A stretch of 64,000 nt of DNA from an uncultured Eubacteriales bacterium. Its GTDB lineage: Bacteria > Bacillota > Clostridia > Oscillospirales > Acutalibacteraceae. Under the pieces are notes generated by a model, which did no database searches, was not told the DNA's origin, and saw only the letters and a list, made by a program, of their open reading frames with translations. Both the position numbers and the translations under genes were made by a program. The stretch is taken from contig CAKSJY010000004.1 in the NCBI GenBank assembly GCA_934464585.1, positions 8,092 to 72,091 of the forward strand, given 5' to 3'. Each line of letters opens with the position of its first letter. Position 1 is the first letter of the stretch. Positions 25,201 through 58,553 of the stretch are shown here, piece after piece.

Positions 25201-25593
25201 AAGCGAAAATTTTTTCTTCTCTGAAACCCTTACCGCTTCATCCTCCAAGGAAGTGTCACCTGCGTTACTTTCAGTTGCTGTACCGATAGCCTGCTGATAT
25301 ATATGTGTTAGTTCATGCTTAATTACTGTTTCATCATTTCTTTGGTCTGAGGTCACAAAAATACTATTTCCGCTAGCTGCAGCGTAAGGCTCATCGGCCT
25401 CCTGCTCGTCCATTACATAAAATTTAACATTTTGAGCGTCCATATTAAATCTGTCTCTTGCCCAATCTACCGCCCATTGTGGTAAGCTTTCTTTTTGCAG
25501 TTTAAAATCGGAAGAGATATTTCCTCCACCTGCAAAATTCCCTTTTTTATTTTTCTCTGATAATTGCCCATCGTCTTTTTTATAATCATACAT
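22264..25593 (-). CDS. large DUF4157-like (HExxH) domain protein with one TM segment and an uncharacterised ~920-aa C-terminal region
   Basis: ATG at 25593 lies 6 nt after GAGGTG. The N-terminal block SLPQWAVDWARDRFNMDAQNVKFYV...GNSIFVTSD...IKHELTHIYQQ matches the DUF4157 signature (HELTHxxQQ). The hydrophobic segment is SALAIAGLVVGGILTLGILPLGIWIA. Ser/Thr/Lys/Pro-rich linkers are present. Confidence 0.7.
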   Translation of the reverse strand: MYDYKKDDGQLSEKNKKGNFAGGGNISSDFKLQKESLPQWAVDWARDRFNMDAQNVKFYVMDEQEADEPYAAASGNSIFVTSDQRNDETVIKHELTHIYQQAIGTATESNAGDTSLEDEAVRVSEKKKFSLAKNQTQSDRYILPREKTNLVQYKMSALAIAGLVVGGILTLGILPLGIWIAKQIGYKKIAKNTGIQDVKTVKEIYDIFSWAEDEEDYLEDVEDLCSFKKKYNISLIQFREDSERYKEKFGKPGMSASRLISSYFDYLYSKFDPINTGNNISMSEASNSEYSTAESSIAETVNSESSRTESIGSDNKLKNLTNDFKNRSFGLIEKDMEILFGKSLANISSEEMEEYCKLYRSEGFSELTPEILEDYKKKILGEGKNSIEFYCLYRNLLFKTSFFKSIGIEEFIHKREKLAELFHLKIYSDYEVYLNNLMLTVVPPFKEANDKELAFTAIQLDEFIKDASELIDAGRLKECTDDEDVVNDICIGVARKRKSSEKAEPVNKATQAEKLDASSKSKQVITDKPLTNIMKNTTKKLIIGERQEEESKRTQELINNAVEGFTYLKPMPVTFNRSMKTPSTQSVNTRTLGIKSVQKSTNKAPLEGQIIASKAKVKPSRASIMEEQVPKPVFSEESEERLISTKPDVKPKVNPVINEVAAESPKTASSITSPEMIIFDIFAWSQNTSNGNSKGKDIFKNLYNVVNSKGIKLDILRMDSTFLEYIYLNKEIFANNSDEVIDAYIKFLKAGYKSVEGYFKLYIITNKFKDRSIDRINEDLMDLMLGDLYCCELYEINAYIELYDRWDKFSKLTCRDISQACMAIAGDISYVDLLEIKDKLNYFKESGIQIDEFNAIKKLFIKALNTDLYLELGLCLTDLPVDWFKNVFNGAGGLRMIINFNQFIEERSDAEKRMKASGQWEKGSIKKLITEFYSKEPFGRISMKGLDRLIKKCNEMANKRDKKSPNDMFINKSQPTDADAIKSCWAGITSYCTDKYFGLGEDEALSKENMPKDLGKLLEVTESFTKISVGKCEEILCEVYNRYIKSEGGKYMMDIFVSLFINRLLPETNCFRGIRADEASFMLFNLLEDGCETLVDKFKELQRLHMLPV

Positions 25594-25760
25594 AAACAGC
25601 ACCTCATACTATAATAAAAATATTGATTTGCCTGATTGATTAGTATATTTCCTTCAACAATATATCTTAAAAAATTCCTCTAATGTAATTATACCTTATT
25701 TATATATAAAAAGTCAAAATTCATTTCATTTAACCCACCCCCGCAAAAATTCACTATATA

Positions 25761-36792: not shown

Positions 36793-37512
36793 TTATTTAA
36801 ATATAAGATCAATTTCAGCCGGTGTCATTTCTCGGCAATCACCAAGTCCTAATTTGTCATCTAGCTTTAAGCCTCCAATTTGCTTTCGCTTTAAATGTAA
36901 TACCTTTAGTCCAACAGCCAAAAACATTCTTTTAACTTGATGAAACTTACCCTGACAAATTTTCACTTCTACCACGCTGTTCTTATCATCATTTTTTATT
37001 ATCTTAAGCTCTGCAGGCAAGTATACCTCTCCATTTTCTAAGGTTATACCTTTCTTAAAATCGGCTATTTCCTTAGAAGTAACTATACCGCTAACAAGAG
37101 CCTCATATATTTTATATACCTTTTTTACAGGAGATAACATCTTATGTGAAAAATTTCCATCATTAGTTATTATTAATAATCCCTCTGTATCTATATCAAG
37201 CCTACCTGCCGGAAATAAATTTCTTCTATATAATTCCTTCGGAACAAGGTCTAAAACAGTCTTCTTTTTAGAGTCTCGACTTGCAGAAATAACCCCTCCG
37301 GGTTTATTCATCATAATATACATATAGTGGTGAAACACTAGTGTTTCACCACTTATTTTTATATTACTAATTTCAGGGTCTATTTTTTTACTATAATCTT
37401 TCTCCACAATGTTATTAACAGTAACTTCGCCCTTTTTTATTAATTTTTGAACTTCTTTTCTTGTTCCAATATTCTGTGATACTAATATTTTATCTATTCT
37501 ACTTAACGGCAA
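36793..37512 (-). CDS. S4-domain pseudouridine synthase (RsuA/RluB family)
   Basis: S4 N-terminus (RIDKILVSQNIGTRKEVQKLIKKGEV) and the catalytic motif AGRLDIDTEGLLI. TTG start after AAGGAA. Confidence 0.85.
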   Translation of the reverse strand: MPLSRIDKILVSQNIGTRKEVQKLIKKGEVTVNNIVEKDYSKKIDPEISNIKISGETLVFHHYMYIMMNKPGGVISASRDSKKKTVLDLVPKELYRRNLFPAGRLDIDTEGLLIITNDGNFSHKMLSPVKKVYKIYEALVSGIVTSKEIADFKKGITLENGEVYLPAELKIIKNDDKNSVVEVKICQGKFHQVKRMFLAVGLKVLHLKRKQIGGLKLDDKLGLGDCREMTPAEIDLIFK

Positions 37513-37532
37513 ATTTAAATTCCTTTCTTGAC

Positions 37533-38135
37533 TTAATCTGTAGGTGCTTGGGGCATATTAGGGTCTGGGGCTAAAGTTTCTCGTTCAGTAGTCCTTTCCA
37601 TTGCTTCTCTTATTGTGCTAGATGACGTATCCTTTTTCGCATTCGTTTGGGCTGAAAGCTTCGAATTGTCAAAACTTTCTACAAAGCCATTCATTTCAGA
37701 TGAGCTTATATCTCCAGCTATAACTTTACCTTTACAAACTATAAGTGAAGCCCTTATCCCCTTTGATCTTCCAGGATAATTTAGAACCTCGTAAACATAT
37801 TTTTTGCAACTTTTACCCTTATATTTTTGTAAATCAAGGCCTTGCCTTTTTTGAATTTCATTGTAATTTTCATATACATCATTAAATTCTTCCGGTATTG
37901 TTATATCTGAAACTTCTAATGGTTCCTCGTTTATTTTCCAGCCAAATTGCGACAGAAATGAAACTCTACTTTCATTACTATCAGCTATTAAGCTATACTT
38001 TCCCGATTGTGAATTAGCATTATTTAAAGAGCCAACATTTGCAAATACAACTATTATCACTCCCAAAATTAATAATGCCAAAGCGATAATTGCTATTAAT
38101 TTTTTCTTAGATGCTTTTACCGATAAAATAAACAT
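37533..38135 (-). CDS. membrane-anchored DUF4830-like protein
   Basis: N-terminal TM segment. FLSQFGWKINEEPLEVSDITIPEEFNDVYENYNEIQKRQGLDL resembles the DUF4830 signature. Confidence 0.55.
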   Translation of the reverse strand: MFILSVKASKKKLIAIIALALLILGVIIVVFANVGSLNNANSQSGKYSLIADSNESRVSFLSQFGWKINEEPLEVSDITIPEEFNDVYENYNEIQKRQGLDLQKYKGKSCKKYVYEVLNYPGRSKGIRASLIVCKGKVIAGDISSSEMNGFVESFDNSKLSAQTNAKKDTSSSTIREAMERTTERETLAPDPNMPQAPTD

Positions 38136-44675: not shown

Positions 44676-45152
44676 TTATTTAATCTCTATACAAACATAT
44701 TGTTTTCCTTGCTTATTTAGGTTTAAAAATGGACCTGAAGTAGGTACATCTTGGCTTTGAGATAAAATCAATGTAGTACCAGCAAGTTCCATCCCGCTTG
44801 TTGATCCATTCACCTGGTTACCTATTCCACCATTACATATAACACAGTTATTAGTAAAATCAAAGTCAGTAAATGGTTCTGTTGCTAAAAGCACAATAAC
44901 CATACTCGGTGCAAAGCTTAGTGTATGAGACTTAATAGATTTACCATCTCCTTGGAGTAGTTCAGCTGTAATCTGACTACCGGCTAATATTTGCCTGTCT
45001 GCCTCTGTTAGATGAATATTTGTATTTGTAGTATGCGAGTGTATAATACTGTCTAATATTGTATTATCACTTACAAAGTCTTCTCTTTTCGGCTTGTCAG
45101 TCCCAAGCCAACTATTTAAATTTAGGTTAGCCGTTTTATTTTGTGTAGGCAT
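44676..45152 (-). CDS. short tail-fibre/receptor-binding candidate (158 aa)
   Basis: It is the last gene of the tail module. The N-terminus ANLNLNSWLGTDKPKREDFVSDNTILD resembles conserved fibre N-termini of Firmicute myophages. Confidence 0.4.
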   Translation of the reverse strand: MPTQNKTANLNLNSWLGTDKPKREDFVSDNTILDSIIHSHTTNTNIHLTEADRQILAGSQITAELLQGDGKSIKSHTLSFAPSMVIVLLATEPFTDFDFTNNCVICNGGIGNQVNGSTSGMELAGTTLILSQSQDVPTSGPFLNLNKQGKQYVCIEIK

Positions 45153-45166
45153 CTTATTTTCCCCCT

Positions 45167-45727
45167 TTAAGTATCTATCTTATTCCAAGTTAAATCTTCA
45201 GCATCCATTTGGTTAAATGTATAGTCATTTTCATCTATCCTATCCCAGCTTAGATCCCTAAAATCAAAGTCACATCTTAAATGTGCCGGTAAAAATTGCT
45301 TTGCTTCATTAATTGCACTTTGTCTTTCTTCGGCACTCGAAAATGTGTCATTGCAGTTGAAATCAAACTTGGTACCGCCCCTATTTTCTATTATGTATCC
45401 CTCTATACCACAGGACTTCGCTGCTTCCTCAATTTTAACTTTTGTATAATCGTTTGATGTGATTTTATTTCTATATAAAAGCCTCTCCTGCCGTTCTGAG
45501 TTACCCAAATCACTTTTTAAATATCCAAAAAGTTTTTCTCTCAAATCCAATCCGAAAGACTGTGAAGTTGAAATAAAGCACTCTCTTTCAAGTTCATTAA
45601 ACCTTTCGTTTAAAAGCTCAAATCCTACCGCATATGCCGAAAGTTCAGCATTTACAATGCTTTCTGGCGATAGATTGTACAAACCAAGAGGTTTTAACTT
45701 TGATTTTAATAATGTCAATACACTCAA
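45167..45727 (-). CDS. baseplate/tail protein, XkdU (DUF2313, gpI)-like
   Basis: It follows Baseplate J. LGLYNLSPESIVNAELSAYAVGFELLNERFNELERECFISTSQSFGL fits the DUF2313 pattern. Confidence 0.7.
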   Translation of the reverse strand: MSVLTLLKSKLKPLGLYNLSPESIVNAELSAYAVGFELLNERFNELERECFISTSQSFGLDLREKLFGYLKSDLGNSERQERLLYRNKITSNDYTKVKIEEAAKSCGIEGYIIENRGGTKFDFNCNDTFSSAEERQSAINEAKQFLPAHLRCDFDFRDLSWDRIDENDYTFNQMDAEDLTWNKIDT

Positions 45728-45729
45728 GC

Positions 45730-46800
45730 TTAACTTCCTCCTTCAGTTATCGTGACTGTTTCCATGCAAACAAGCTCATTAGCACTTGTAGTGTAATCTG
45801 AGGAATTGCCTGAACCGAATCTATAATTTTTAACGCCTTCTATATTGAATATAGCATTCCCTAAACCAGCTAAAAGATATGGCTCCCCAATTTTAAGAGA
45901 TGAAAAGTACTCACCTATAACTGCCTCACATTCGTCCTTTATATCACTGAATATATAACCCTCTTGCGGATATATAATTATATCAACACTTCTTTTTACT
46001 TCTTTTGGTTTTTTTACGGTAACATCAACATTGATTTCCCTAAGAGCATTAATATCATCTTGTATACTTTTCATATCGTTATCACTTAAAGCGCCACCCC
46101 TTTCGGCAACATAAACGTATACTGTACCATCACCGCCGGCTCTTGAAACAGCGCTTGCAGAATATACATTGTCATATTGCAAAGCACATTCTTTATAGAA
46201 AGCCGCATTGGTTCCATTTGGAATATTTCTATAACTCTCTATTAATCTCTTTCTTAAATCACTGTCTGATTCACTATCGGTTCCGCCTGAAAATGCTAAG
46301 GCGTTACTAACCGCTGTAATTGCAGCGGGTGGAGTAACCATAATGGTTATTGTCTCTGCCAACGTATTTGAAGCTGTACCCGGCAGTTCGGCCTCTGCAT
46401 TGGCCTGTACTGAAAGTGAGCCTGCAGGTAAAACTACTGTTTCGGTAGTCTTATATCTAAATCCATCTGACCCCGAAGTTGCACATACTGTTCCTTCAGG
46501 AATTGTAACATCATATAAAATTGATCTTTGTCTGGAAAAAGTAAGCTTTCCTCTTGCCTTTGTTGCAGGTTTTCGAGTTAAACCTCGTTGCTCGGCGTGT
46601 AAATCCAATTGTGTACCTGTAGCTGTTTGAGGAAACATTTGATTTTTTAACCAATCCATACTTGCCATTGTTGAAAAAATTTCGCCTGCTAACACTTTTA
46701 ACCTTATTCCTATATCCGACGCTTCATCTGCGTCAAACCCAGCCAAATTTTTAAACTCATTTTGCATACTCTCCAGTATTTCAGAATATGTACTGCTCAT
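45730..46800 (-). CDS. baseplate J-like protein (XkdT-like)
   Basis: The Baseplate_J signature region is DIGIRLKVLAGEIFSTMASMDWLKNQMFPQTATGTQLDLHAEQRGLTRKPATKARG. Confidence 0.85.
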   Translation of the reverse strand: MSSTYSEILESMQNEFKNLAGFDADEASDIGIRLKVLAGEIFSTMASMDWLKNQMFPQTATGTQLDLHAEQRGLTRKPATKARGKLTFSRQRSILYDVTIPEGTVCATSGSDGFRYKTTETVVLPAGSLSVQANAEAELPGTASNTLAETITIMVTPPAAITAVSNALAFSGGTDSESDSDLRKRLIESYRNIPNGTNAAFYKECALQYDNVYSASAVSRAGGDGTVYVYVAERGGALSDNDMKSIQDDINALREINVDVTVKKPKEVKRSVDIIIYPQEGYIFSDIKDECEAVIGEYFSSLKIGEPYLLAGLGNAIFNIEGVKNYRFGSGNSSDYTTSANELVCMETVTITEGGS

Positions 46801-47144
46801 ACTATAACCTCCAATTCCTCTTTATTCTTATCTATTGAAAGGTTCACGCTAATCCTTAAATTTTCTGCACTATCTGCAAAACTTACATCAACACTATCCA
46901 CTTTTACCTCTTTCATATCTGCAAGAGCTTCATTAACTAAAATAGATGCCGTATTTTTTAGGTTACCTGTGCTACTTTTTAGAGTATATAGCCTACTGCC
47001 CAGATTTTTATCATATATAAAGCTTCCTTTTTTTACCGTAAGACGTATTAACGCACGTTGCAAAATCTCTTTTGCACCTGAAATCAAAAAAGGCTTTCCA
47101 GTAGTACCCAAACAGAAATCGCCGTTTTTTAGTGCTGTATCCAT
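46797..47144 (-). CDS. gp25/W-like baseplate wedge protein (XkdS, DUF2634-like)
   Basis: 115 aa. GAKEILQRALIRLTVKKGSFIYDKNLGSRLY fits the gp25-like pattern. It sits just before Baseplate J. Confidence 0.7.
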   Translation of the reverse strand: MDTALKNGDFCLGTTGKPFLISGAKEILQRALIRLTVKKGSFIYDKNLGSRLYTLKSSTGNLKNTASILVNEALADMKEVKVDSVDVSFADSAENLRISVNLSIDKNKEELEVIV

Positions 47145-47147
47145 ATA

Positions 47148-47492
47148 TTAGTCCTCTCCTTGTTTAAACTCTACACCATTTATCAATACCTTGCCATCAT
47201 TATTTAAAACCAAACTTGCTCCACCATTTGAATAAAGCATAATTTCTCCGGGTTTAAGATTTTTGTCTTCCGCTATAACGCCTGCACAAATGTATTTATC
47301 ACCTACCGGAATTATAACTGTCTTATCCCCATCAAGTGGTGAGTAGGCTATCCCTTTCGGAACTACAAAAGATATATTTCTATATTCACTACTATTTTGA
47401 ACATTTACGGTATTTGAACTTGAATATGTAACCTCACCATCAAGATTTTCATGGCTTATATTTGATACTGCAATCTTTTTGGAAATCCACAT
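47148..47492 (-). CDS. baseplate spike/plug protein (XkdR, DUF2577-like)
   Basis: Call rests on size and position between the hub and gp25-like genes, and on composition that looks beta-rich. Confidence 0.5.
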   Translation of the reverse strand: MWISKKIAVSNISHENLDGEVTYSSSNTVNVQNSSEYRNISFVVPKGIAYSPLDGDKTVIIPVGDKYICAGVIAEDKNLKPGEIMLYSNGGASLVLNNDGKVLINGVEFKQGED

Positions 47493-48433
47493 TAATTTTC
47501 CTCCTTAAACATAACAGCCTCTGTTTTTTCAATATTCGGAGATAAAATATATTTAATCTTTGATATATGCAAATCACTAATATTACCCAAAATCTTGTCC
47601 GAAATATTTACCTGCTGATTAACTTCGAGCGCTTGCAGACTTGGAAGCTCAACTGTAAACTGACAAAATTTTTCTTCACCAGATTTTATAATTTCCTCTC
47701 CGCATGATACCGGAGTCCTGCTGTCATTGGTATAATTCAAGTATCTTTTCCTTTTTATCCCTGTACCTAAAGCATTAGTATTACTTACTTTTATATTATA
47801 AGCAGCATCTTTTCCCGCTCTTACAAAAACCTCGGAAATTCTATTATATCTACATATATTTTCCTTAATCTCGAAATAACATATTCCATCCTTTGAGTTT
47901 TCTATAAATACTTTATCCTTTTCACAATCTTTCCCTGTTGCATCAACAACAAATTCATCTATTACACGAGGGGTTGTATTTAAATATGTTTTACAAAACT
48001 TTTCTAAAACACCCCACTCGCTCATACCCTTTGTGACTGTAAACTCACCTGTAAATACACTTTTATCACCAATTATTTTCTTAAACCCATATGGTTTTAT
48101 ATGTCGATCAAAAATAATCTCAAGTGAAGGCGAATAATACACCTGTGGCATAGCTTCATTATCTAAAAGCCACGCAGCATAACTTCTTGCATAAATTTCT
48201 AAAAAGCAACCATCAGCATTTATTTTTGTTATCTGTTCGTCAACAATGCCGGAAAAAATACTTTCATCGCTAATAAATACTTCTACACTCTTAAACTCCG
48301 GTACTTTTTCTAAAATGGGGAAGGTAGCACTTAGGTTGTCTGCCGGTGTATCAATTTCCTTTGTTATATTTACTAAATACGGGTTTTCAAATATAACTTC
48401 TCTATCATCTATAGTTTTAAACTTAAATTTCAC
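47492..48433 (-). CDS. baseplate hub protein (XkdQ / gpD-like)
   Basis: 313 aa, placed directly after the LysM protein as in PBSX. Confidence 0.55.
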   Translation of the reverse strand: MKFKFKTIDDREVIFENPYLVNITKEIDTPADNLSATFPILEKVPEFKSVEVFISDESIFSGIVDEQITKINADGCFLEIYARSYAAWLLDNEAMPQVYYSPSLEIIFDRHIKPYGFKKIIGDKSVFTGEFTVTKGMSEWGVLEKFCKTYLNTTPRVIDEFVVDATGKDCEKDKVFIENSKDGICYFEIKENICRYNRISEVFVRAGKDAAYNIKVSNTNALGTGIKRKRYLNYTNDSRTPVSCGEEIIKSGEEKFCQFTVELPSLQALEVNQQVNISDKILGNISDLHISKIKYILSPNIEKTEAVMFKEEN

Positions 48434-48957
48434 CTAAGCACCACCCTCTGCCCCTCTTCAAGTGAATCGGGTCTTTTAATTTCCGGATTAATTTTCATAA
48501 GGTCTGAAACTGTTGTGTTATATTTATAGGCTATGTTCCAAAGGTTTTCTCCCTTACTTGCCGTATAATAGCTTTCACTCAAACTTGTAACTTCTATACC
48601 AGATTTTTCTATACTTTCCCAAAACTCAAAGCTGTAGCTTAATGAATCCTCTGCCTTATTCCCTAACATTTTCAATGATTTGAAACTTGCTAAAAACGGC
48701 TCCTCACCGGGTAGTTTTAGATATCCTGTTTCATCGCTTAAATAAACCTCTCTAAGCTTATTAAACTTTTCTAAAAAATTTTCTCCAAAAAATTCTCCGG
48801 ATCCTTTTACAACTCTTTTAGCTCTTCCAAAATTTTGCAAAACATTTTTATAATAAGGACACTTAATATCTTTTATATTTTTTTCTTCATCAACCGATAT
48901 TTGACTTGGATTGTACTCCCAAACATAATCTTTATAACTCATTTTTTCTAAACTCAT
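48430..48957 (-). CDS. LysM-domain tail protein (XkdP-like)
   Basis: C-terminal LysM motif YTASKGENLWNIAYKYNTTVSDLMKINPEIKRPDSLEEGQRVVL. Confidence 0.8.
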   Translation of the reverse strand: MSLEKMSYKDYVWEYNPSQISVDEEKNIKDIKCPYYKNVLQNFGRAKRVVKGSGEFFGENFLEKFNKLREVYLSDETGYLKLPGEEPFLASFKSLKMLGNKAEDSLSYSFEFWESIEKSGIEVTSLSESYYTASKGENLWNIAYKYNTTVSDLMKINPEIKRPDSLEEGQRVVLR

Positions 48958-49250
48958 ATTTTAGTTCCCCCCAAGTCTGCTTCAAACATACATGGATATC
49001 TTCTGAAATCCCTTTCAAATATATCCGATACAATCTGCGCATCAAACAATTCATCTTTAGAAATTTGTGGCGTATCATCTTCCGATAACGGTTGTCTAAC
49101 ATCTTCCGACACATCTATTTCTATATTTTTTGTTTCTAATTTATTTAATTTTAAAGTTGGCAGCCATAAGCTTTCTTTTGATCTATTTTTTAAAGCGGCC
49201 TGTCTATTCTTTTTAAATATATCGTTAAATATCATCAACTGAATCACCAC
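48954..49250 (-). CDS. 98-aa ORF occupying the tape-measure-protein position
   Basis: It lies between the chaperone pair and the LysM gene, where xkdO-type tape-measure genes (usually many hundreds of codons) sit. It overlaps the LysM start by 4 nt and the upstream ORF by 26 nt. Confidence 0.5.
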   Translation of the reverse strand: MVIQLMIFNDIFKKNRQAALKNRSKESLWLPTLKLNKLETKNIEIDVSEDVRQPLSEDDTPQISKDELFDAQIVSDIFERDFRRYPCMFEADLGGTKI

Positions 49251-49440
49251 TCATTTCTATAAATTTATTCTCGTCAAAATTTTCGTTTATACCTTCTTCA
49301 ATTCCTTCCGGTTCCTCATCCAAAAGCATATGAATATAACAATATATATAATCACCCTCACACATGTTTCTGGCGTCATAGGATGTTGGAAGTGATCCAA
49401 ACCTTTTTAAAACTTCATAGCATATCCTTTGTTTTGGCAA
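49225..49440 (-). CDS. tail assembly chaperone, -1 frameshift extension (GT-like)
   Basis: The acidic 71-aa ORF is in the -1 frame relative to 49443..49835. It is reachable by slippage on the A9 run at the end of that gene. Confidence 0.6.
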   Translation of the reverse strand: MPKQRICYEVLKRFGSLPTSYDARNMCEGDYIYCYIHMLLDEEPEGIEEGINENFDENKFIEMSGDSVDDI

Positions 49441-49442
49441 AC

Positions 49443-49457
49443 TTAGTTTTTTTTTAA
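49443..49457 (-). other. programmed -1 ribosomal frameshift site (slippery TTA AAA AAA AAC TAA)
   Basis: Nine consecutive A residues on the minus strand (49447-49455) lie immediately before the stop codon. The -1 frame is open from there into 49225..49440. Confidence 0.6.
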
Positions 49458-49835
49458 GTTTCGCACTACACTTGGTGTAAGCTTATCAAATGTTAAAAAA
49501 TTCTTCTGTAGTTCAGCATATTTATTAGCTACCTTTAAAAGCTCTTCTGGAGTTAAAATAGAAAGTGCATTAAATCCATCCTTAAATACAAGTTTATCCT
49601 TTTCGTCATACAAACAAAGCGATGTAAGCACCGCATTTTCTGCCACAGATTTAGAAATCCTTTGGTCTGCACCATCAGCAATAAGTCTTTCCAAAAGTTT
49701 TCTTGATTCTTTTTCGCATAAAATTGCTTCATATACTGATAAAAGACTTATATAAAACACTCCGGACAAAAGCTCTATAGGTTCTCTTGTAAACTTTCCA
49801 CCAAGAAGTTGTCTTCCTACTCTCTTTTTCATCAT
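49443..49835 (-). CDS. tail assembly chaperone (XkdN-like)
   Basis: 130 aa, placed directly after the tube gene and ending in the slippery A-run. Confidence 0.65.
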   Translation of the reverse strand: MMKKRVGRQLLGGKFTREPIELLSGVFYISLLSVYEAILCEKESRKLLERLIADGADQRISKSVAENAVLTSLCLYDEKDKLVFKDGFNALSILTPEELLKVANKYAELQKNFLTFDKLTPSVVRNLKKN

Positions 49836-50221
49836 AATATTTCCATCCTTTTTGCAGCAATAATTTGTACATCTTCAAGTATGGTATCATTAAGCGATGC
49901 TGACTCTTTTATATCAAACCACTCACATCCGGAATAAACTATTCTTCTGTCAGGTTTTACTATAACCAAATTAAAATTATGTAAATCAAAAAAATTTACT
50001 GCGGTATCTGATTGGCCGTCAAAATACATATAAACCCTAGATAAACTTATAACATGCTTTATTCTACCGGATACTGTACCAACAGGTTCTTTTTCTCCAA
50101 AAGCTTCAATATATCTGCTGTTTTGACTTGATTGAGCCTTATAGCTTTCAACAACCGCAAGCTTTTTTCCGTTTACCTCTATATAGATATCCTGACTTGT
50201 TGGAAATACAGCCTTTAACAT
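49832..50221 (-). CDS. contractile tail tube protein (XkdM-like)
   Basis: 129 aa, immediately downstream of the sheath gene. Confidence 0.7.
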   Translation of the reverse strand: MLKAVFPTSQDIYIEVNGKKLAVVESYKAQSSQNSRYIEAFGEKEPVGTVSGRIKHVISLSRVYMYFDGQSDTAVNFFDLHNFNLVIVKPDRRIVYSGCEWFDIKESASLNDTILEDVQIIAAKRMEIL

Positions 50222-50233
50222 ATAGTCTCACCC

Positions 50234-51289
50234 CTAAACTTTTATATTTGCTGAAATAATAATTTGATTTAATCCATGTGAAACTGTAAAAGATACTTCC
50301 ACAATACACACAGTCGCATCTTGGTCCGACACACTTATATTAGGTTGCTGGTAATCTACAATTATTCCGCTGTCTTTATATTCCTGAAGTTTTATAACTG
50401 TCTGAGTCGCAATCGCAGAACGTGTTGTAACATTATTTTTCCCACCTAAAAGATTGTTTTTAAGCATATCTCTAAGGCCTGGAATTACTTCATCTATTAT
50501 TAAAACTGTATTTATGTCTTTAAATGTTGTATCAAAAACACCGTCTGTCGTTGTTTTGGATGTAACAAGCCTGATTATTTCGGCCTCATCTAAAACACAT
50601 TCCAATGGTGTAATACCGTTTGTTATATATGTATCTATATCATCCTCATCAAGTGTAGGAGAAATTCCCTTTATGCCACTTAAAGTCTTTGTATTAAATG
50701 ACGAAGACGGATCTACATTTCCGGAAATCACACCGGCTAAAGCCGCAGCCAACAAATTTCCGGAAAGTTCTTTTAAGCTTTCATCAAGTGGAATTTGTGA
50801 AAGCAATATCATCCTTTCGCAATTTAGGCCTTGTGCCCAACTCTTCACGCTATCTATATTTTCATATTTACCGAAAGAAACTATCCCCAGTCGTTCCTTT
50901 TGATTCTTTGAGCAATTAAGTATACTTGTTTTTAAAAGGTTATGTACCGTAGGACTTGTACTGTCACAAACAACAGTATAAATACCATTTTGTGTTTCTA
51001 ATGTACTAAAAGCTGCCTCGTAATCACAGCTTGTACTTGTACCAGCCGAAACTGCCATGACTTCCGAAGCGCCGTTTTTCAGTGCCATACAGCAAAGAGA
51101 GTACATCTCGCCCTCGACACCAAAAATAGTTTCAGCATCTACTGCCTTGGTTATTTTGTGAACTACATTAGCTTCAGCACTATTTAGTGCTACTATACCA
51201 ACTGCCTTACCTTTGCCATTCGACCATATTACTCCGGAGGTATTATAATCTGAATAAACTCCCGGCCTTTGATGTGCAATTACCGACAT
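50234..51289 (-). CDS. contractile tail sheath protein (XkdK-like)
   Basis: The N-terminus HQRPGVYSDYNTSG...GKAVGIVA is typical of sheath proteins. 351 aa. Confidence 0.8.
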   Translation of the reverse strand: MSVIAHQRPGVYSDYNTSGVIWSNGKGKAVGIVALNSAEANVVHKITKAVDAETIFGVEGEMYSLCCMALKNGASEVMAVSAGTSTSCDYEAAFSTLETQNGIYTVVCDSTSPTVHNLLKTSILNCSKNQKERLGIVSFGKYENIDSVKSWAQGLNCERMILLSQIPLDESLKELSGNLLAAALAGVISGNVDPSSSFNTKTLSGIKGISPTLDEDDIDTYITNGITPLECVLDEAEIIRLVTSKTTTDGVFDTTFKDINTVLIIDEVIPGLRDMLKNNLLGGKNNVTTRSAIATQTVIKLQEYKDSGIIVDYQQPNISVSDQDATVCIVEVSFTVSHGLNQIIISANIKV

Positions 51290-51783
51290 TATATTTCTCC
51301 CTTCACTTGAATATCACTTATTTCTATTTCTTCATTTGACTTACCTATAAATATTCTCATTTTCAACAAACAATCTAAAAAGTACACCTCTGAACTTTTA
51401 TCAAATCCTACCTCTTTGCAATTTATTTTATAAATTTGTTTCAAATCCGGATCTAAAAATAGGCAATCAAATATTTTAGAAAAAATATCTGAACAATTGT
51501 TGCTACCTAAAAATTTAGGTGAATTTATTCTCAGCAGAACAGTCATGGAACAATTTTTACCAAACACATCTTTTCCGCATGATTGACCAAAGTAGTTTCC
51601 AAACGCTCGATCAGACGAATCCACTTCTGAAATTCCGATAGTCACATAACTACTTCTAATTGGATTAGGTCGCTTTACCGCTCTATATGAGTTTATAAAA
51701 CCTACTTCTGAAAGTTCTTCATCTGCTGATAATTTGTTTTTTATATCCTCTGCAATCTCATCAAATATTCCCATCATATCCAC
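51289..51783 (-). CDS. neck/tail-completion protein
   Basis: The call rests on its position between the head-closure and sheath genes only. Confidence 0.4.
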   Translation of the reverse strand: MDMMGIFDEIAEDIKNKLSADEELSEVGFINSYRAVKRPNPIRSSYVTIGISEVDSSDRAFGNYFGQSCGKDVFGKNCSMTVLLRINSPKFLGSNNCSDIFSKIFDCLFLDPDLKQIYKINCKEVGFDKSSEVYFLDCLLKMRIFIGKSNEEIEISDIQVKGEI

Positions 51784-51792
51784 CCTTTACAT

Positions 51793-52152
51793 TTAAGTTA
51801 TATTGTCGTCAGGCACATATTTCTGCAATATAGCCCAAATATACAAAACTTCATCCGCTAAGCATATTTTCTCTGCTCTTTTTATTGTATATAAATCACC
51901 ATTACACCTTAAAGTAGTGTCAATTGGGAATGTATCTATCCTAACATCCGGCATACCGGTATATATAAATGTATTTATATCTGCAATACCCAATTTTAGG
52001 TATTGATAACCAAATGTATTTTTATCTACATATCTGCTGGGTTGAATCATCGCTTTTGTAGTCGCTTTTAGGTTATTTAAGCCGTCTAATACCTCAACAG
52101 TACTCCCGTGTTGTTTGATTAGAGACCTTACTGTTGTATCACGTCCCATCAT
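51793..52152 (-). CDS. head-tail adaptor / head-closure protein
   Basis: The call rests on position only. It overlaps the connector gene by 4 nt. Confidence 0.4.
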   Translation of the reverse strand: MMGRDTTVRSLIKQHGSTVEVLDGLNNLKATTKAMIQPSRYVDKNTFGYQYLKLGIADINTFIYTGMPDVRIDTFPIDTTLRCNGDLYTIKRAEKICLADEVLYIWAILQKYVPDDNIT

Positions 52153-52529
52153 ACGATGCTCACCCTTTCTGCCAAAAACTCATTATCATTTATTAAATCC
52201 AATATAAGTGCTTTGGCATCTAGCCATACTCTATATGCTAAATCAACCATTGTTTTTTTATCGATGGTAACCTTTATGTCTCCCGCTGCAAAATCGTTCA
52301 TGCCTTCTCCTGAAGCCCTATACACCGTATATCTATAATAAACCAAGGCGGCGGCAGCGGCATTAAGCCGCATGCCATTTTGTTCTTCTGTCAATGGGTC
52401 CTTAAGCATTCTTCTTATATCTTCTTCCGCCTCGCTACAAATAGGTAACCACGGTGATACTTCTTCGTCACTTAGAGATGCTATTAATGCGAACCTTTTT
52501 AATATCTCCTGTATATCCAAGTAGCTCAC
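52149..52529 (-). CDS. gp6-like head-tail connector protein
   Basis: The N-terminus SYLDIQEILKRFALIASLSDEEVSPWLPICSEAEEDIRRML resembles the phage gp6-like connector family. It follows the capsid gene. Confidence 0.6.
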   Translation of the reverse strand: MSYLDIQEILKRFALIASLSDEEVSPWLPICSEAEEDIRRMLKDPLTEEQNGMRLNAAAAALVYYRYTVYRASGEGMNDFAAGDIKVTIDKKTMVDLAYRVWLDAKALILDLINDNEFLAERVSIV

Positions 52530-52542
52530 CTCTTATACAAAA

Positions 52543-53544
52543 TTACCAAGTTAATTTTTTAGTAGCATCTGCAAAAATCTTTGCAAAACCTGTAATACTA
52601 CTTACAGATGCTCTTTCAAGCTGTCTGTCGATTAACTTATCGTAATCAACTATAACATCGCCTGCTTGAACCATTTCAAGTGCACAATTTCTATCGATAC
52701 CTATAATTGTTTCGGCTGTTACTGATGGTACATGAACTAAAGTAGCCCCAAGTGGTGTAACAAGTTTACCAGTACCTTGGAAATTAAGTCCTGCTTGAGC
52801 ATCCTTCATATCTTCAAGATTTAAAATAGTTTGCATTGTTGCAGTTGAAGCCAACATTGTATTTAGTTCATATGGTGATAAACTTGCCCAAAGTTTTACA
52901 AGATCTGAATATGTAAGAGTATCAGCGGTTGCTGAAGATACTTGGCCTGCTGCATTGTTGTTTCCATCACCATTTAGTAATACATCAACAGCATCGTCTA
53001 GCTGCGCTCTTGCAATACAAGCACCAATTCTTTTTAGGCTTACTGTAAACAAGTCAAGGTGTTGGAATCTTAATGCTTCATAGGAAGCTACAAGCATTCT
53101 ACCTCTTTTATTTAACCTAATTAAGTTATCTTGTGTACGGATATTAGTTTTAGGTAATTCAGCACCCTCTGCAATATTTGTTGCATCAGTTTCATCTTCT
53201 GAAACAATCCCTCTATAGTCAAGGCCTTCTATTTTTGTAGTTGTTGCAACAATCGAAGGTAGCATATTATTTTCTTCGATACCTTGTCTTACTGCTCTTA
53301 CAATGTATTCAGGAAATAGCACTGCTGAATCTGATGTTTGGAAGAATTTATCGATAACATCTGAATTTGTGCCGCAAACCTTAATATTAAAACGTTTTAG
53401 CTGACGTTCAAAAGCATCTAAACCTGCTAGCTCTGTATTTTCATAATTTTCTGATGGGTCTAAAACCTCCAAATTTTGAGTAAAACTGTTTTTACCTGTA
53501 TTGTACATACCTTTTTCAAGTTTTATTGAATCATAAAATGCCAT
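52543..53544 (-). CDS. major capsid protein
   Basis: 333 aa, in the XkdG position after the protease/scaffold and the small DUF2190-like gene. It has a strong RBS. Confidence 0.7.
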   Translation of the reverse strand: MAFYDSIKLEKGMYNTGKNSFTQNLEVLDPSENYENTELAGLDAFERQLKRFNIKVCGTNSDVIDKFFQTSDSAVLFPEYIVRAVRQGIEENNMLPSIVATTTKIEGLDYRGIVSEDETDATNIAEGAELPKTNIRTQDNLIRLNKRGRMLVASYEALRFQHLDLFTVSLKRIGACIARAQLDDAVDVLLNGDGNNNAAGQVSSATADTLTYSDLVKLWASLSPYELNTMLASTATMQTILNLEDMKDAQAGLNFQGTGKLVTPLGATLVHVPSVTAETIIGIDRNCALEMVQAGDVIVDYDKLIDRQLERASVSSITGFAKIFADATKKLTW

Positions 53545-53567
53545 AATTTTTTCCTCCTAAATTTTAT

Positions 53568-53912
53568 TTATAAAATAATGCCTGTTGTTGCGCTTGTTGA
53601 ATCGATATCCATAACTAAGATTTGTCTTCCCTTTTCACTATCGGCTTTTACCTTATTAGAACCATCTGAAGACAATGATTGATAACCCAATGCTGTAAAT
53701 GTACCACTATATGGTAATGTTACATATCCACCAACTTTTACTGCAGCATATCCATTGTTTACAGATAAAACTACGCCACAAAATGTGTTAGTATTTGCAC
53801 ATTTTTCTACTGTCTTATTTGCACTTATTTTTACTAAATCTCCCTTTTTAACCCCAGACGCTGCGATTAAAGTTACTACCTTATCTTCATATCCACTTAA
53901 AGAAACACTCAT
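53568..53912 (-). CDS. small head-associated protein (DUF2190-like)
   Basis: 114 aa, beta-rich, placed between the scaffold/protease and capsid genes. Confidence 0.45.
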   Translation of the reverse strand: MSVSLSGYEDKVVTLIAASGVKKGDLVKISANKTVEKCANTNTFCGVVLSVNNGYAAVKVGGYVTLPYSGTFTALGYQSLSSDGSNKVKADSEKGRQILVMDIDSTSATTGIIL

Positions 53913-53926
53913 TACAATCTCTCCTT

Positions 53927-54928
53927 TTAAATTTTAAATTCAGTATTTGTATTTTTCTTTTTTTCTGTTTTTTTAGGTAACAATTGTGGTTTAAATACGT
54001 TATATTCCAAAGACTTCTTCTCAAAAGCATTTTTAAAACTTTTCAATTCAGATATGTCCATTTTATCGGCAACACTTTTCATTGTTTCAATGCATATACC
54101 ACTTTCTGAACCAGCACAAAGCCTTATAACTTCTCTTTTTAAATCCTCTTTATATTGTTTGCCATCTTCTGCTTCTTGTTTTAGCGATTTAATTAATTCA
54201 TATAGATTTTCTGAATCGCTGCTACTAAGTGTAATTTCCTCTTTATTCTGTAAGCTTTTTAAGATATTTTCCATTCCTATATCACTCCTTTCTACACCAT
54301 TAAACTTTTTAATAACCCCTGCCCCTTTTTGTGCCGGAACCGCCACAAATGACCATTCATAGGCATCATATGGTTCAGATAACACATGGTAGCAAAACTT
54401 CTCCTCATTACCCACCTTATAGACATTCCCTTTTTGGTGGTTGCATCGGGACTTTCGTAAATTCTTAGAACATATTGAACAAAACTTTTCCTTAACTGCA
54501 CAACTAACACTTACTTCTTTCTTTATTCCTGAATCTATATCGGTAATAAAGTCTTTATTCTTGTCAGTTCTTGGCGTATATGCCCTTGCTGCAAGCCTGA
54601 AATAAGGTTGTCCTAAAGAGTTAACGACCCCTGGTACTTCCTCTACCTTACATGAAATAATCCTTGCTTTTTGGTTTTCAGCTTTCATGTTATGGTCCAA
54701 TATACCTGTTTTCCCAACAAACAGCTCAGATAACTTCACCAAGGCTTCCTTTGTAAACATCTCACCATCTCTGTCGACTTCATTGTCGCAAAGCACAACC
54801 GAAAAAATATATACATCTGATTCTTCAAATTTTCTTCTTGTATACTTATTAACAAGCTCCATTTCATTTGATATATTCTCGGTATTCTCTTCGCTTTTTA
54901 ATATGTAACCGCTTTTCACCTTTATCAC
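53927..54928 (-). CDS. prohead protease/scaffold fusion (XkdF-like)
   Basis: It sits after the portal gene. The N-terminal domain carries VYIFSVVLCDNEVDRDGEMFTKEAL and the C-terminal tail is a charged coiled-coil scaffold-like region. An internal Cys cluster reads C-x6-C-x2-C-x8-C. Confidence 0.55.
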   Translation of the reverse strand: MIKVKSGYILKSEENTENISNEMELVNKYTRRKFEESDVYIFSVVLCDNEVDRDGEMFTKEALVKLSELFVGKTGILDHNMKAENQKARIISCKVEEVPGVVNSLGQPYFRLAARAYTPRTDKNKDFITDIDSGIKKEVSVSCAVKEKFCSICSKNLRKSRCNHQKGNVYKVGNEEKFCYHVLSEPYDAYEWSFVAVPAQKGAGVIKKFNGVERSDIGMENILKSLQNKEEITLSSSDSENLYELIKSLKQEAEDGKQYKEDLKREVIRLCAGSESGICIETMKSVADKMDISELKSFKNAFEKKSLEYNVFKPQLLPKKTEKKKNTNTEFKI

Positions 54929-54980
54929 CTCACCGTTTTAAACGTTAAATATATAAATAACACACTATAATGTGTGATAT

Positions 54981-56126
54981 TTATTCACTAAGTCTTTTTT
55001 CTATTTCCATAGCCCTTGCCTCTAAAAGTCTCGCATTTGCTACTTGGACTCTATCTTGTAGATTTATATCACTCCACTTTATCTCATACTCAGTAAATAA
55101 ACCTTTTGAAACAAGCCACATATTGCAGATTTTTCTTATAACAGGATTTAATATTCTTCTGTATGCATTAAGTTCACTTGTAAGTAAATCAGCTTGTTGA
55201 GTAGACATTCTTTCCGACGTTGACCAGGAAAGTCCTAAAAAACACGGTGGTATTGATAATTTTGCTACTATCTGCTCTAACATCTGCTTTACCGGTACAA
55301 GACTATCTAATATCTGATTATCAGCACCTATCACCTTAATATCTACATCGCCAACTGCAACAAAATCATTTATTCCTCCGTCACTTCTCATGGTTTTGCT
55401 CCATTCGGTAGCTATTTGCATCGCTCTCTCTTTTGCATAGGCTCTTTCTGCAGCATCATTTCCAGGTTTGTATGTAACAGCAAAACGTATATTTCCAACT
55501 CTCTCCCAGTTCACACCAATGCTATGATAAATTTTTAAGAGTATATTGCTAACAAACGGTAACCCTTTTAAAATCGATGTACCATATATTTCACCCGGAA
55601 GCGGATTTAATGTTGAAACCAAAACGAGTTCTTTATTTCTAATAGGAAATGCCTTATCTCCATCTTTTTTACAAATAATTAAATCCATTGGATTATTGTC
55701 TACTCTAAGTTCTACATCTCTTAGATCTGCGTTATATAATGCCATGTCCTGACTTCCACATTCATATGGAATAATTTCACCAATTGCCGTACCATATGTT
55801 AAAAGTTGATCCATATAAGTGCTTATAAAGCTCTGTATTCCCTGGCCACTTGCACCAACCTTTACATATTGAAAAAAATCTTTTAATTGCTTCTCAATTT
55901 TTTTGTTCTCACATTCAATATCAAAATACCCCATAAGCCTAATCGTTTTGCAGATAGCCGAATCTATTATCGGAACTGCTTCTCTTAGCGATTCATACAA
56001 TCTTACCTCTGTGTCTGAAAGCGGAACATATCGGTTAAGAGCCGAAAACGGATGTACCGTTTCAGATTTCGACGGTGCCGTTTGTACAATATTTTGAGAC
56101 TTTTTTACTTTCTTAAATAAATTCAT
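54981..56126 (-). CDS. portal protein
   Basis: 381 aa, immediately downstream of TerL. The size and position are typical of a portal. Confidence 0.7.
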   Translation of the reverse strand: MNLFKKVKKSQNIVQTAPSKSETVHPFSALNRYVPLSDTEVRLYESLREAVPIIDSAICKTIRLMGYFDIECENKKIEKQLKDFFQYVKVGASGQGIQSFISTYMDQLLTYGTAIGEIIPYECGSQDMALYNADLRDVELRVDNNPMDLIICKKDGDKAFPIRNKELVLVSTLNPLPGEIYGTSILKGLPFVSNILLKIYHSIGVNWERVGNIRFAVTYKPGNDAAERAYAKERAMQIATEWSKTMRSDGGINDFVAVGDVDIKVIGADNQILDSLVPVKQMLEQIVAKLSIPPCFLGLSWSTSERMSTQQADLLTSELNAYRRILNPVIRKICNMWLVSKGLFTEYEIKWSDINLQDRVQVANARLLEARAMEIEKRLSE

Positions 56127-56137
56127 ATTTTCCTCCC

Positions 56138-57394
56138 TTATCTTCTTGATGCCACAACAAAAAAGCCACTACTTTCACTTGATAATATTGTTGTGACAAA
56201 ATATCTTATATCATCCATTGCATGGTCATTTTCTTTTATTGGTACGTCTTTACCGACTGTATTTTCCCAACGATACAGACCGAATTCCCTTATGCTGTCT
56301 GAACAGGTATTGCAAATCTTTATTTTCCCTTGTTTTAATACTGTAGATACTTCCCTTATTCCATCGACTACATTGTTTTTAGCCGGTATAACTCTAAATT
56401 TATTTTTCTTGTTAATAAGCGTAATAAAACTTGCAGCTGATGGATCAACTGTAACAACATCTATATCCAAACCATCGGAAAGTTCTAAAAGTGCATTATA
56501 ATGTTCCTCATCTGTACGTTGTATACCAATTTTTCTTGAATCGTAATAATATTCTTTTATTCTGTACCAAACTCCGTCATAGTTTCCCCATAGTCCAAAT
56601 GACGCCGGGTTTACGGTACCGTAATCACATGAAATTGCATACTTTGAACATATGCCCTTTGGCACATCACAAAACATATTACTGTTTGACATAAACGGAT
56701 ATACAGCCCCTTCTGCGGCAACCCATCTACCTTTTATAAACCTGTCATAAAACGTCCCTGTATATAAATTTTCATAACGATTTATCATTTCTTTAGAAAG
56801 TGACGGGTTGTCATCCATAGTAAAATGCAGATATAAAACTTTCTTTTCCTTTGCCTTTAATATCCATTCTCTATAGAACCAATGCCCCGGGTACTCCGGG
56901 TTACAGTTAAACCAAAATTTTGAACCTTCCACCGAGCACCTTGCTATTGCCTGTTTTACAAATGACTGTGGCATCAGTGCCACCTCATCAAACAAAACCC
57001 CGGAAAGTGTAATACCCTGGACAAGTGCCGCTGAGGATTCATCTTTACCACCAAAAATATAGAAACTATTTTTACGACCATTTTTCGTAATTTCCAATAA
57101 ATTTTGAGAGATTCTTTCTCTACAACTAAATCCCATCTCTTCCAAAATCGGTATAAGCGGTGCTATCAGGTTTCTTCTAAGTGAACGAATAGTTTTTCCA
57201 CATATAGCAAAGCTTCCTCCCTCGAACCTATAAAAAGCCCAGGCAATAAATGAAATCGACATACATAACGTCTTACCGCTTCTAACTGAGCCATCACAGA
57301 TTACCGCATCATAGTCCTTATATTTGCTGTTTTCACACCACCAAGATAGAACTTTTAACTGTTTTTCAGAAAAATTTTTAAATTTCACAATCAT
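56138..57394 (-). CDS. terminase large subunit (PBSX/XtmB-type)
   Basis: Walker A DGSVRSGKT and Walker B VLFDEV. The C-terminal nuclease segment carries TVDPSAASF and ENDHAMDDIRYF. Confidence 0.85.
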   Translation of the reverse strand: MIVKFKNFSEKQLKVLSWWCENSKYKDYDAVICDGSVRSGKTLCMSISFIAWAFYRFEGGSFAICGKTIRSLRRNLIAPLIPILEEMGFSCRERISQNLLEITKNGRKNSFYIFGGKDESSAALVQGITLSGVLFDEVALMPQSFVKQAIARCSVEGSKFWFNCNPEYPGHWFYREWILKAKEKKVLYLHFTMDDNPSLSKEMINRYENLYTGTFYDRFIKGRWVAAEGAVYPFMSNSNMFCDVPKGICSKYAISCDYGTVNPASFGLWGNYDGVWYRIKEYYYDSRKIGIQRTDEEHYNALLELSDGLDIDVVTVDPSAASFITLINKKNKFRVIPAKNNVVDGIREVSTVLKQGKIKICNTCSDSIREFGLYRWENTVGKDVPIKENDHAMDDIRYFVTTILSSESSGFFVVASRR

Positions 57395-57900
57395 TCCTCC
57401 GACTCTTTCTCTTTCGAGCTCAATGCCTTAGCACCGTTTTCCAGAGCCTTATAAAACGGAGTAACATCGTCTGCATTGTTATGACCCGAATCTCGCAATT
57501 TTTCGATTGCTGTTAATCTATCAAAAAACTTTATCTCAAGTCCCCCATCTTTATTTTTCTTTATTTCGGATATATTAAATAAATCCATATTTTCAAGCAT
57601 TTGCAATGTTGGCGTATCAGAAAACAAAAGGCTAATAGGATCTGAAATATTCCCGAATGCCAAACGCTCATAACCACTGTTGGCTTTGTTTTTAAGGTGC
57701 AGATTTTTAAGTTTATAAAGCCTTGAAATTTCATGATTTATTTCTTTTCTTGCAAGTAGCCTTATCCCAGCCCTCTCAGGTTCTCTACGATATCCTGATC
57801 TAAGCGCAGACTCTTTAACATTTCCATTATTTACATAGTTGTAACAAAAAAGCCTTTCTTTAGTACTTAAAGTTGTCGATGCCTTCTTCCTCAAATTCAT
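57391..57900 (-). CDS. terminase small subunit
   Basis: KERLFCYNYVNNGNVKESALRSGYRREPERAGIRLLARKEI is a Terminase_2-like HTH N-terminus. It overlaps TerL by 4 nt. Confidence 0.75.
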   Translation of the reverse strand: MNLRKKASTTLSTKERLFCYNYVNNGNVKESALRSGYRREPERAGIRLLARKEINHEISRLYKLKNLHLKNKANSGYERLAFGNISDPISLLFSDTPTLQMLENMDLFNISEIKKNKDGGLEIKFFDRLTAIEKLRDSGHNNADDVTPFYKALENGAKALSSKEKESEE

Positions 57901-58199
57901 CTCACTCCTTTTGTTCTCTCAATATACAGAAAAAAAGACCTGTTTTTTCCCCTCTTGAGGGCAAAAAAACAAATCTTTTTTATTTTTATCTTAAAATTAG
58001 CTCTTTTTAGCCTTTATTATCCTAAATTTATTTCTATTTTTTAACAGTAATAACTCTCTGCTCCACTCCGGTCTTGAAAACACTTTCAAAATAATATAAA
58101 ATGTATAGTCAAAATATCAAAAGAAAATGTAACATTTATCTACCTAGTAATATCAATATAAATTAATTAAATTTTCAATGCTTTTTGCTTTTAATCGCG

Positions 58200-58553
58200 T
58201 TATTTTCTTTTTTTCTTTCCAGAAACATAAAGACCTATTAATATAATTACAAGCAAAGAAGCAACCACTGAAATTCCTATATATAAATATACCTTGGCCT
58301 TTCTGCTGGGCTTTATATCTCTATCATTATTCGAAATATTTCCTTCTTTAACATATTCACTTTGTTCATCAACAACATTTGTTTCTGCTGTTGCAGTCAA
58401 AGATTTTTCCGAAAAATCAACCTTATATGCTAGGTTATCACAGTAAAAGCATATAAGAAACGCTGAAAACATTAATATAAAAAATAAAATATTTTTCTTG
58501 TATCCCACATTACTCCTTCTTTCTTTGTAAAACCATGTTATTATAGTTCTCAC
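58200..58553 (-). CDS. small two-TM membrane protein with a basic C-terminus
   Basis: The hydrophobic segments are ILFFILMFSAFLICFYC and VYLYIGISVVASLLVIILIGLYV. It ends in GKKKRK. Confidence 0.4.
   Translation of the reverse strand: MRTIITWFYKERRSNVGYKKNILFFILMFSAFLICFYCDNLAYKVDFSEKSLTATAETNVVDEQSEYVKEGNISNNDRDIKPSRKAKVYLYIGISVVASLLVIILIGLYVSGKKKRK

Follow-up and report, generated by a model that had tools for sequence, protein, structure and literature searches.

The control of tail length by the tape-measure protein is a textbook example of a molecular ruler: length scales at 0.15 nm per residue, and the tube is built from rings of 4 nm. In the known systems this protein is served by a frameshifted pair of tail assembly chaperones, and the G/G-T gene pair classically precedes the tape-measure gene, as in phages lambda and P2. 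Here we describe a small open reading frame (ORF) which occupies the tape-measure position in a head-tail gene cluster of an uncultured Eubacteriales bacterium (contig CAKSJY010000004.1, positions 8,092 to 72,091); this stretch of 64,000 nucleotides (nt) is called the window below. The ORF probably encodes a miniature tape-measure (tail-lumen) protein of a chromosomally fixed cluster that consists of structural genes only and combines a PBSX-terminase-type head with a contractile tail. Among described systems, the tape measure g11 (Rcc01694) of the gene transfer agent (GTA) RcGTA has 216 amino acids (aa) and goes with five tube hexamers (PMC7296036), a precedent among GTAs for a short ruler in a short tail. 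GTA-like packaging of host fragments of 4.6-8.9 kb was reported for gut Ruminococcaceae and Oscillospiraceae, clusters of 12.7-14 kb were put forward as candidates in Butyricicoccaceae and Coprocola, and in the particles of FpGTA from Faecalibacterium prausnitzii the tail is very short or cannot be seen; in most taxa these virome studies left the gene clusters unassigned (PMC12946183; bioRxiv 10.64898/2026.07.08.737213). FpGTA has a capsid protein of the N4-gp56 family and its baseplate genes lie in a second operon (PMC12946183).

The ORF under study, called the slot ORF, and the neighbours that define its position are the following.

48954..49250, minus strand: slot ORF, proposed miniature tape-measure protein, 98 aa from GTG at 49250
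49443..49835, minus strand: G-like tail assembly chaperone, 130 aa, ending in LKKN before the stop codon, assigned by position
49447..49455, minus strand: A9 slippery run (A AAA AAA), programmed -1 frameshift
49225..49440, minus strand: T-like chaperone extension, 71-aa ORF in the -1 frame (...KKKLSLPKQRICYEVLKRF...DYIYCYIHMLLD...)
48430..48957, minus strand: LysM-domain baseplate protein, XkdP-like in position, 175 aa (PF01476, E=2.6e-11)
47492..48433, minus strand: baseplate central hub, 313 aa (phrog_177, E=1.5e-17; AlphaFold model)

Since a G/G-T chaperone arrangement lies just upstream, the slot ORF sits exactly in the tape-measure slot. An earlier note on this DNA had placed it after a frameshifted pair of chaperone genes and before those for the LysM protein and the hub, and the identity of the neighbours upholds that placement. 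The chaperone itself has no match in Pfam or PHROG. The A-run and the KKN end at the stop codon are conserved, the run being kept in the related loci L003, L004, L009, L012, L015-L019 and L024. In L014 (8502-9128) the G and T frames are fused into one ORF of 208 aa, and the A-run differs in length from that of its neighbours; this is either a homopolymer assembly error or a natural variant that always makes G-T. The AlphaFold model of the hub, with a predicted local distance difference test (pLDDT) score of 81, matched the hubs Mu gp44, 3d37, gp27 and those of pyocin and diffocin in Foldseek, with E down to 1e-13.

The 98-codon frame that starts at GTG was reproduced exactly, as were the two overlaps claimed for it: its stop codon and the start of the LysM gene share ATGA (48954-48957), and the upstream ORF, which ends at 49225, overlaps the GTG-started frame by 26 nt. 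Coupling, overlap and position together bear out the view that the ORF is a properly embedded gene. An alternative start, ATG at 49235, is preceded by GGTGA 7 nt upstream and gives a protein of 93 aa with an overlap of 11 nt. This form is used by 6 database members and by the gene calls on 6 other contigs, and ATG 49235 is the likelier start. The lack of family matches might suggest that the slot ORF is no gene at all and merely a chance open frame within an intergenic spacer, which we consider extremely improbable. At the composition of the window (33% GC) the stop frequency is ~0.075 per codon, and the computed probability of 98 open codons at one given place is ~5e-4; the frame also has a GGTGA that resembles a ribosome-binding site and the ATGA coupling to the next gene, its protein motif is kept in L003 (41% identity) and beyond, and synonymous changes are in excess.

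Related loci were collected via the hub protein family from species-representative genomes (35 loci), IMG/VR (31 loci) and metagenomes (31 loci), and were compared with family hidden Markov models (HMMs) of the window proteins. Essentially all of them proved to be one and the same type of cluster, collinear and 10-14 kb in size. In ~110 non-identical loci the tube stop codon and the LysM start are at most 1474 nt apart, and a long slot gene occurs in none of these; the short slot is common to every relative found, down to ~30% hub identity. Where a sheath gene is present the slot measures 73-298 aa (median ~150), which puts the window protein, at 93-98 aa, near the low end of the sheath-bearing range. 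In loci without sheath and chaperone the slot amounts to ~0-83 aa (median 38) and is often a peptide of 25-30 aa with the C-terminal motif described below. Automated slot detection gave zero for 11 sheath-bearing loci and L065 was flagged as sheath-less; these are regarded as detection failures, because most of the slot ORFs were recovered otherwise and a sheath ORF was seen in L065. A phmmer search with the 93-aa protein against 1.84 billion representative proteins returned 6 matches, all of 69-96 aa, so that the close relatives with a full-length gene which the earlier note had named as the test of its proposal are absent from these data. As no relative has a full-length gene, the short gene is the normal state of the family.

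Two further searches led to the same type of locus. The exact back-translated pattern RDARRYDGGF, for which we estimate a chance expectation below 0.1, was found in 67 IMG/VR loci, and all 67 are the same cluster, in which the slot ORF has the motif at its C-terminal end. When 50,697 phage records were searched by tblastn for the tube, hub and LysM proteins, no cultured phage was matched; the only matches were four unannotated 'Bacteriophage sp.' faecal contigs, all with the same short-slot cluster. These scaffolds are L001 (MT835769.1), L002 (MT837832.1), MT836604.1 and MT835952.1, from human faecal samples from Mexico. That cluster DNA occurs in deposits labelled as viral could be explained by particles which package host DNA, or by contamination.

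The sheath-less relatives (L006, L008, L010, L020-L029, L031, L033 and L040-L059; for example L008:8571-10930 and L020:8300-10900) have lost sheath and chaperone and have kept a tube-like gene, LysM, hub and baseplate genes, with a slot of 0-64 aa that holds the C-terminal RRY motif only. These loci give the impression of a contractile tail cut back to a stub.

A C-terminal helix motif, [FLM]E.D.RRY, is common to all slot ORFs and lies a few residues before the stop codon; examples are FERDFRRY in the window and FERDSRRY, MEFDARRYNRNF, MERDYRRYPHPL and QRDARRYDGGF elsewhere. Versions accompanied by the chaperone also begin with a short amphipathic helix, MIFNDIFKKNRQAALKN in the window and MDYIxEELxRQxxAL in high-GC relatives, the N-terminal consensus shared by the slot ORFs being weak. 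The two end helices are joined by a low-complexity linker whose length varies widely. A single-sequence AlphaFold2 (AF2) model of the window protein likewise has a helix at residues 2-16, coil, and a second helix at 60-79 (pLDDT 62). At 93-98 aa here and 0-298 aa in the family, the protein falls short of the several hundred residues or more that are usual for a tape measure; conserved termini around a length-variable centre, another mark of such proteins, are present.

Pairwise comparison of loci by the Nei-Gojobori method gave ratios of non-synonymous to synonymous substitution rates (dN/dS) of 0.03-0.2 for sheath, tube, chaperone, LysM protein, hub, capsid and Baseplate_J protein, with dS often saturated. 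The ratio for the slot ORF is 0.16-0.47, with one pair at 0.95 that rests on very few substitutions. Compared with a 97.5% identical relative, the slot gene shows 8 synonymous and 3 non-synonymous codon changes, the latter all in the linker. The low ratios and the excess of synonymous changes indicate that the tail module, including the small gene, has long been maintained by selection, which is hard to reconcile with a tail-defective relic.

Selection and the short slot in all ~110 loci decide what becomes of the proposal, made in the earlier note, that a clean in-frame deletion produced a tail-defective element; as a recent event this is rejected. The tape measures of PBSX-type tails and of Clostridial myophages are indeed ~10 times as long as the slot (phiCD119 944 aa, phiC2 762 aa), as a deletion would have it. 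However, every relative down to ~30% hub identity has a short slot, the tail genes keep dN/dS values of 0.05-0.2 across saturated dS, and the close homologues are all of 93-96 aa. The recent loss of a full-length tape-measure gene, with the element now tail-defective, decaying or head-only, is very improbable and is already contradicted by the comparison of loci. The related idea of an N+C fusion would be close to the truth if it is taken to describe the whole family and not a lesion in the window genome: the end helices are conserved and the linker is variable family-wide, although the sequences searched contained no long ancestor with these ends. Since the same protein ranges from 25-30 to ~300 aa across the family, the window version is one stage, kept by selection, of a graded series and does not reflect damage.

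For a miniature tape measure, a route of assembly can be proposed by analogy with the way in which long tails are canonically built, the models being lambda gpG/GT-gpH and P2 E/E'-T. The chaperone and its -1 frameshift product, made at the A9 run, would hold the small protein. Its C-terminal helix (SDIFERDFRRY...) would dock in the hub/LysM complex and nucleate, or plug, the centre of the baseplate, and tube subunits would stack around the short linker up to the N-terminal helix. The tube would then be capped, and the sheath would polymerise from the gp25-like initiator. With ~93 residues, ~45 of them linker, tube and sheath should comprise few rings and measure ~10-15 nm, as compared with 100-200 nm, since 93 residues at 0.15 nm correspond to ~14 nm and hence to a small number of tube rings of 4 nm each. 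A ruler protein would be expected to have conserved ends, an elastic middle and a length that tracks tail complexity, as is seen here. Of the three options considered in the earlier note, an extremely short tube and sheath is therefore the best supported, by the short slot in ~110 loci and by the selection on tail genes; the ruler function and the actual tail length are what we infer from these observations.

Several points weigh against a ruler. The AF2 model is of low confidence (pLDDT 62, single sequence), and its linker is coil and not the helix that is typical of rulers. No tape-measure family in Pfam, PHROG, NCBIfam or the PDB sequences matches the protein, and a profile of the motif run against all PDB chains gave chance matches only (importin, FADD) and no tape-measure chain. 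The C-terminal RRY motif is absent from the phiC2 tape measure; the phiCD119 record, inspected for the same motif, is fragmented around the tape-measure C-terminus. The chaperone profile matched only 35 of 76 sheath-bearing loci, which may reflect divergence. Versions of 25-30 aa cannot measure, so that the core function may be hub plugging or nucleation.

The main rival to the ruler is thus a hub plug or baseplate-nucleation factor, with the length of tube and sheath set by a terminator, by subunit supply or by a factor encoded elsewhere. The C-terminal helix is the sole universal part of the protein and persists as a peptide of 25-30 aa in sheath-less clusters, the linker is predicted to be coil and evolves fast, and similarity to tape-measure families is lacking, all of which suits a plug. 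On the other hand, slots in clusters with a sheath gene are never shorter than 73 aa and those in clusters without one do not exceed ~83 aa, the frameshifted chaperone pair is retained next to the slot ORF, and the variable-length middle between conserved ends has the look of a ruler. We consider the plug unlikely.

A different question is whether the tape measure lies elsewhere. The 64-kb window holds no long candidate, its long ORFs being pyruvate phosphate dikinase, SpoIIE, glycogen phosphorylase and a protein of 1112 aa. That the latter (22264-25602, minus strand) is a tape measure which has been displaced was rejected, since an N-terminal HExxH motif (HELTHIYQQ) is followed in it by a transmembrane segment and its gene lies ~19 kb away among housekeeping genes. 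It has no match in Pfam, NCBIfam or PHROG; its N-terminus is reminiscent of metallopeptidase-like domains on polymorphic toxins, and by position it is unrelated to the cluster. A true long tape measure at a second locus, with the slot ORF as remnant or accessory, would have precedents in RcGTA and FpGTA, which are multi-locus (PMC12946183), and only 64 kb of the genome is covered here, a further count against our interpretation. Yet the window has no such gene, the slot ORF is under purifying selection with its hub-proximal and chaperone-proximal motifs kept, more than 100 loci show the same arrangement, and no long protein with the same ends occurs among the 1.84 billion representatives. A second locus is improbable on these grounds, and a miniature tape measure remains the reading we prefer.

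The cluster as a whole (44676-57900, minus strand) is 13.3 kb long and forms a single operon of 21 closely spaced ORFs. The gene order is TerS, TerL, portal, 333-aa protein, small virion protein, capsid, three neck proteins, sheath, tube, the 130-aa and 71-aa chaperone ORFs, slot ORF, LysM protein, 313-aa hub, 114-aa protein, gp25-like initiator, Baseplate_J protein and two distal tail proteins. Those not given above are the following.

57391-57900, minus strand: TerS (PF03592)
56138-57394, minus strand: TerL of the PBSX family (TIGR01547, E=5e-60, 203.9 bits against a cut-off of 105)
54981-56126, minus strand: portal (phrog_30703, E=1e-129)
within 52543..57900, minus strand: 333-aa protein in the protease/scaffold position
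within 52543..57900, minus strand: 114-aa virion protein
52543-53544, minus strand: HK97-type major capsid protein (TIGR01554, PF25209, PF05065)
51289..52529, minus strand: three small neck or tail-completion proteins of 126, 119 and 164 aa, assigned by position and conservation across loci
50234..51289, minus strand: tail sheath, 351 aa (PF17482, E=9e-11; phrog_279, E=2e-34)
49832..50221, minus strand: tail tube, 129 aa (phrog_27038, E=1e-41; family profile)
47148..47492, minus strand: 114-aa baseplate or spike-region protein (phrog_25991, E=1e-9; conserved in all loci)
46797..47144, minus strand: gp25-like sheath initiator/baseplate wedge, 115 aa (PF10934 Sheath_initiator on a near-identical homologue; PHROG baseplate wedge matches)
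45730..46800, minus strand: Baseplate J-like protein, 356 aa (PF04865, E=6e-50)
44676..45727, minus strand: two distal tail or fibre proteins of 186 and 158 aa (phrog_521 tail protein, E=4e-14; collinear in all loci)

The only match among the neck-region proteins is that of the 164-aa protein to phrog_25177, a family of unknown function. The family profile of the tube matched the phage 812 tail tube in the PDB (8q01_A, E=4.6e-5). Comparison of the tube and chaperone family alignments with XkdM and XkdN of phiCD119 by HHalign gave no significant match. In sheath-less loci of the Caproiciproducens type (L020:8600-9340; L022, L023, L025, L026, L031 and L033) a single ORF of ~224-250 aa stands where the p119 neck protein and the tube would be and may be a p119-tube fusion. 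Homology between p119 and the tube, suggested by iterated HMMs, was dropped when HHalign did not confirm it.

An Rfam scan of the whole window revealed no riboswitch or other RNA family, and matches in a promoter and terminator scan were not enriched over shuffled sequence. The best sigma-70-like match of the region (58093-58120, minus strand, TTGATA-16-TATATT) lies ~190 nt upstream of TerS, in the sole sizeable intergenic gap of the cluster. Just upstream of TerS, a protein of 117 aa with two predicted membrane segments is encoded (58200-58553, minus strand); L003 and L004 have it in the same place, at 47% identity. It could be an accessory gene product, for example holin-like.

Genes for integrase, repressor, replication or lysis were found neither in the cluster nor beside it in the window, where housekeeping genes form the flanks. 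Among the flanking genes in 23 related genomes, the families that recur are HflX, ABC transporters, GerA, NusA/RimP, aldolase and Mfd, and no integrase, holin or amidase is among them; HflX directly follows the cluster in 6 sheath-less loci. Genes for a pseudouridine synthase and a DUF4830 protein occur no more than a few kb from the cluster, both in the window (36793-38135, minus strand) and in several distant genomes (L005:13907-14587; L037:16379-17074 and 18873-19181; L010:16109-16702). Most cluster flanks differ between loci, and the partial synteny hints at old vertical inheritance. The capsid protein family comprises at least 8000 database clusters at E<=1e-10, and the cluster belongs to a large family that is found in Oscillospirales-type Clostridia of gut and rumen. 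The Clostridial-myophage setting assumed in the earlier note did not hold up: the locus is a chromosomal cluster of structural genes only, and not an ordinary prophage either. A chromosomal head-tail structural cluster without replication, integration and lysogeny genes is one characteristic of a GTA, and the element is best described as domesticated and possibly GTA-like. GTAs package random host DNA in pieces too small to hold their own cluster, and the short-slot cluster family may do likewise; the host fragments of 4.6-8.9 kb reported for related host families (PMC12946183) lend this indirect support.

In the published literature that was searched, no contractile-tail cluster whose ruler has ~100 residues or fewer is described, and no graded series of this kind; a miniature tape measure in a GTA-like, PBSX-terminase-type element would be new. 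A broader reading seems plausible though short of probable, and is put forward tentatively: in a very widespread domesticated family of gut and rumen Clostridia the contractile tail may have been progressively miniaturised, the ruler shrinking from ~300 to 25 residues with loss of sheath and chaperone below ~70, so that members of the window type would have the shortest contractile tails known and the family would provide the clusters behind the GTA-like packaging in gut Oscillospirales viromes. A natural series of 25-300 residues in collinear, selected clusters would test the ruler model at its lower limit and would define the minimal contractile injection machine, that is, the fewest working sheath rings and the point at which the sheath becomes dispensable. 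In the sheath-less members a myovirus-type tail is seemingly caught in evolving to a podovirus-like stub. As a candidate locus for GTA-like packaging in the gut, the short-slot cluster family has cultured carriers, for example Caproiciproducens galactitolivorans BS-1 (L020), whose cluster is sheath-less with a slot of 25 aa.

Canonical tape measures (lambda gpH, P2 gpT, T4 gp29 and, by gene order, PBSX XkdO, phiCD119 gp17 and phiC2 p20) occupy the same slot between the chaperone pair and the LysM/hub genes. The slot protein resembles them in its conserved ends and variable middle and in being encoded by the fastest-evolving gene of the tail module. It differs in its size of 93-98 aa, where they range from several hundred to more than 1000 (phiCD119 gp17 944, phiC2 p20 762), in the lack of detectable similarity, in a middle that is predicted to be coil and not a long helix, and in the existence of members of 25-30 aa.

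With the PBSX and skin elements of Bacillus subtilis the window cluster shares a large terminase of the PBSX family, and its order from sheath to Baseplate_J is one which we take to match XkdK-M-N-O-P-Q-R-S-T of PBSX. In contrast to PBSX, the window cluster has no adjacent repressor, sigma factor or lysis genes, its slot encodes ~93 aa where the PBSX tape measure exceeds 1000 aa, and it spans 13.3 kb as compared with ~28 kb.

FpGTA belongs to the same host group, gut Oscillospirales-type Clostridia, and likewise consists of structural-only clusters of ~10-14 kb among housekeeping genes. The identity of the window cluster with FpGTA was rejected on the basis of the capsid family: the N4-gp56 capsid and the two operons of FpGTA mark it as a different family from the window cluster, which has an HK97-type capsid (TIGR01554/PF05065) and one operon. 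RcGTA has a non-contractile tail and an alphaproteobacterial host, whereas the window element has a sheath, a gp25-like initiator and a hub of the Mu gp44 type; the window ruler is less than half as long as that of RcGTA, and no homology was detected between the two. What the window element and RcGTA have in common is a short lumen protein within a domesticated head-tail cluster of ~14 kb.

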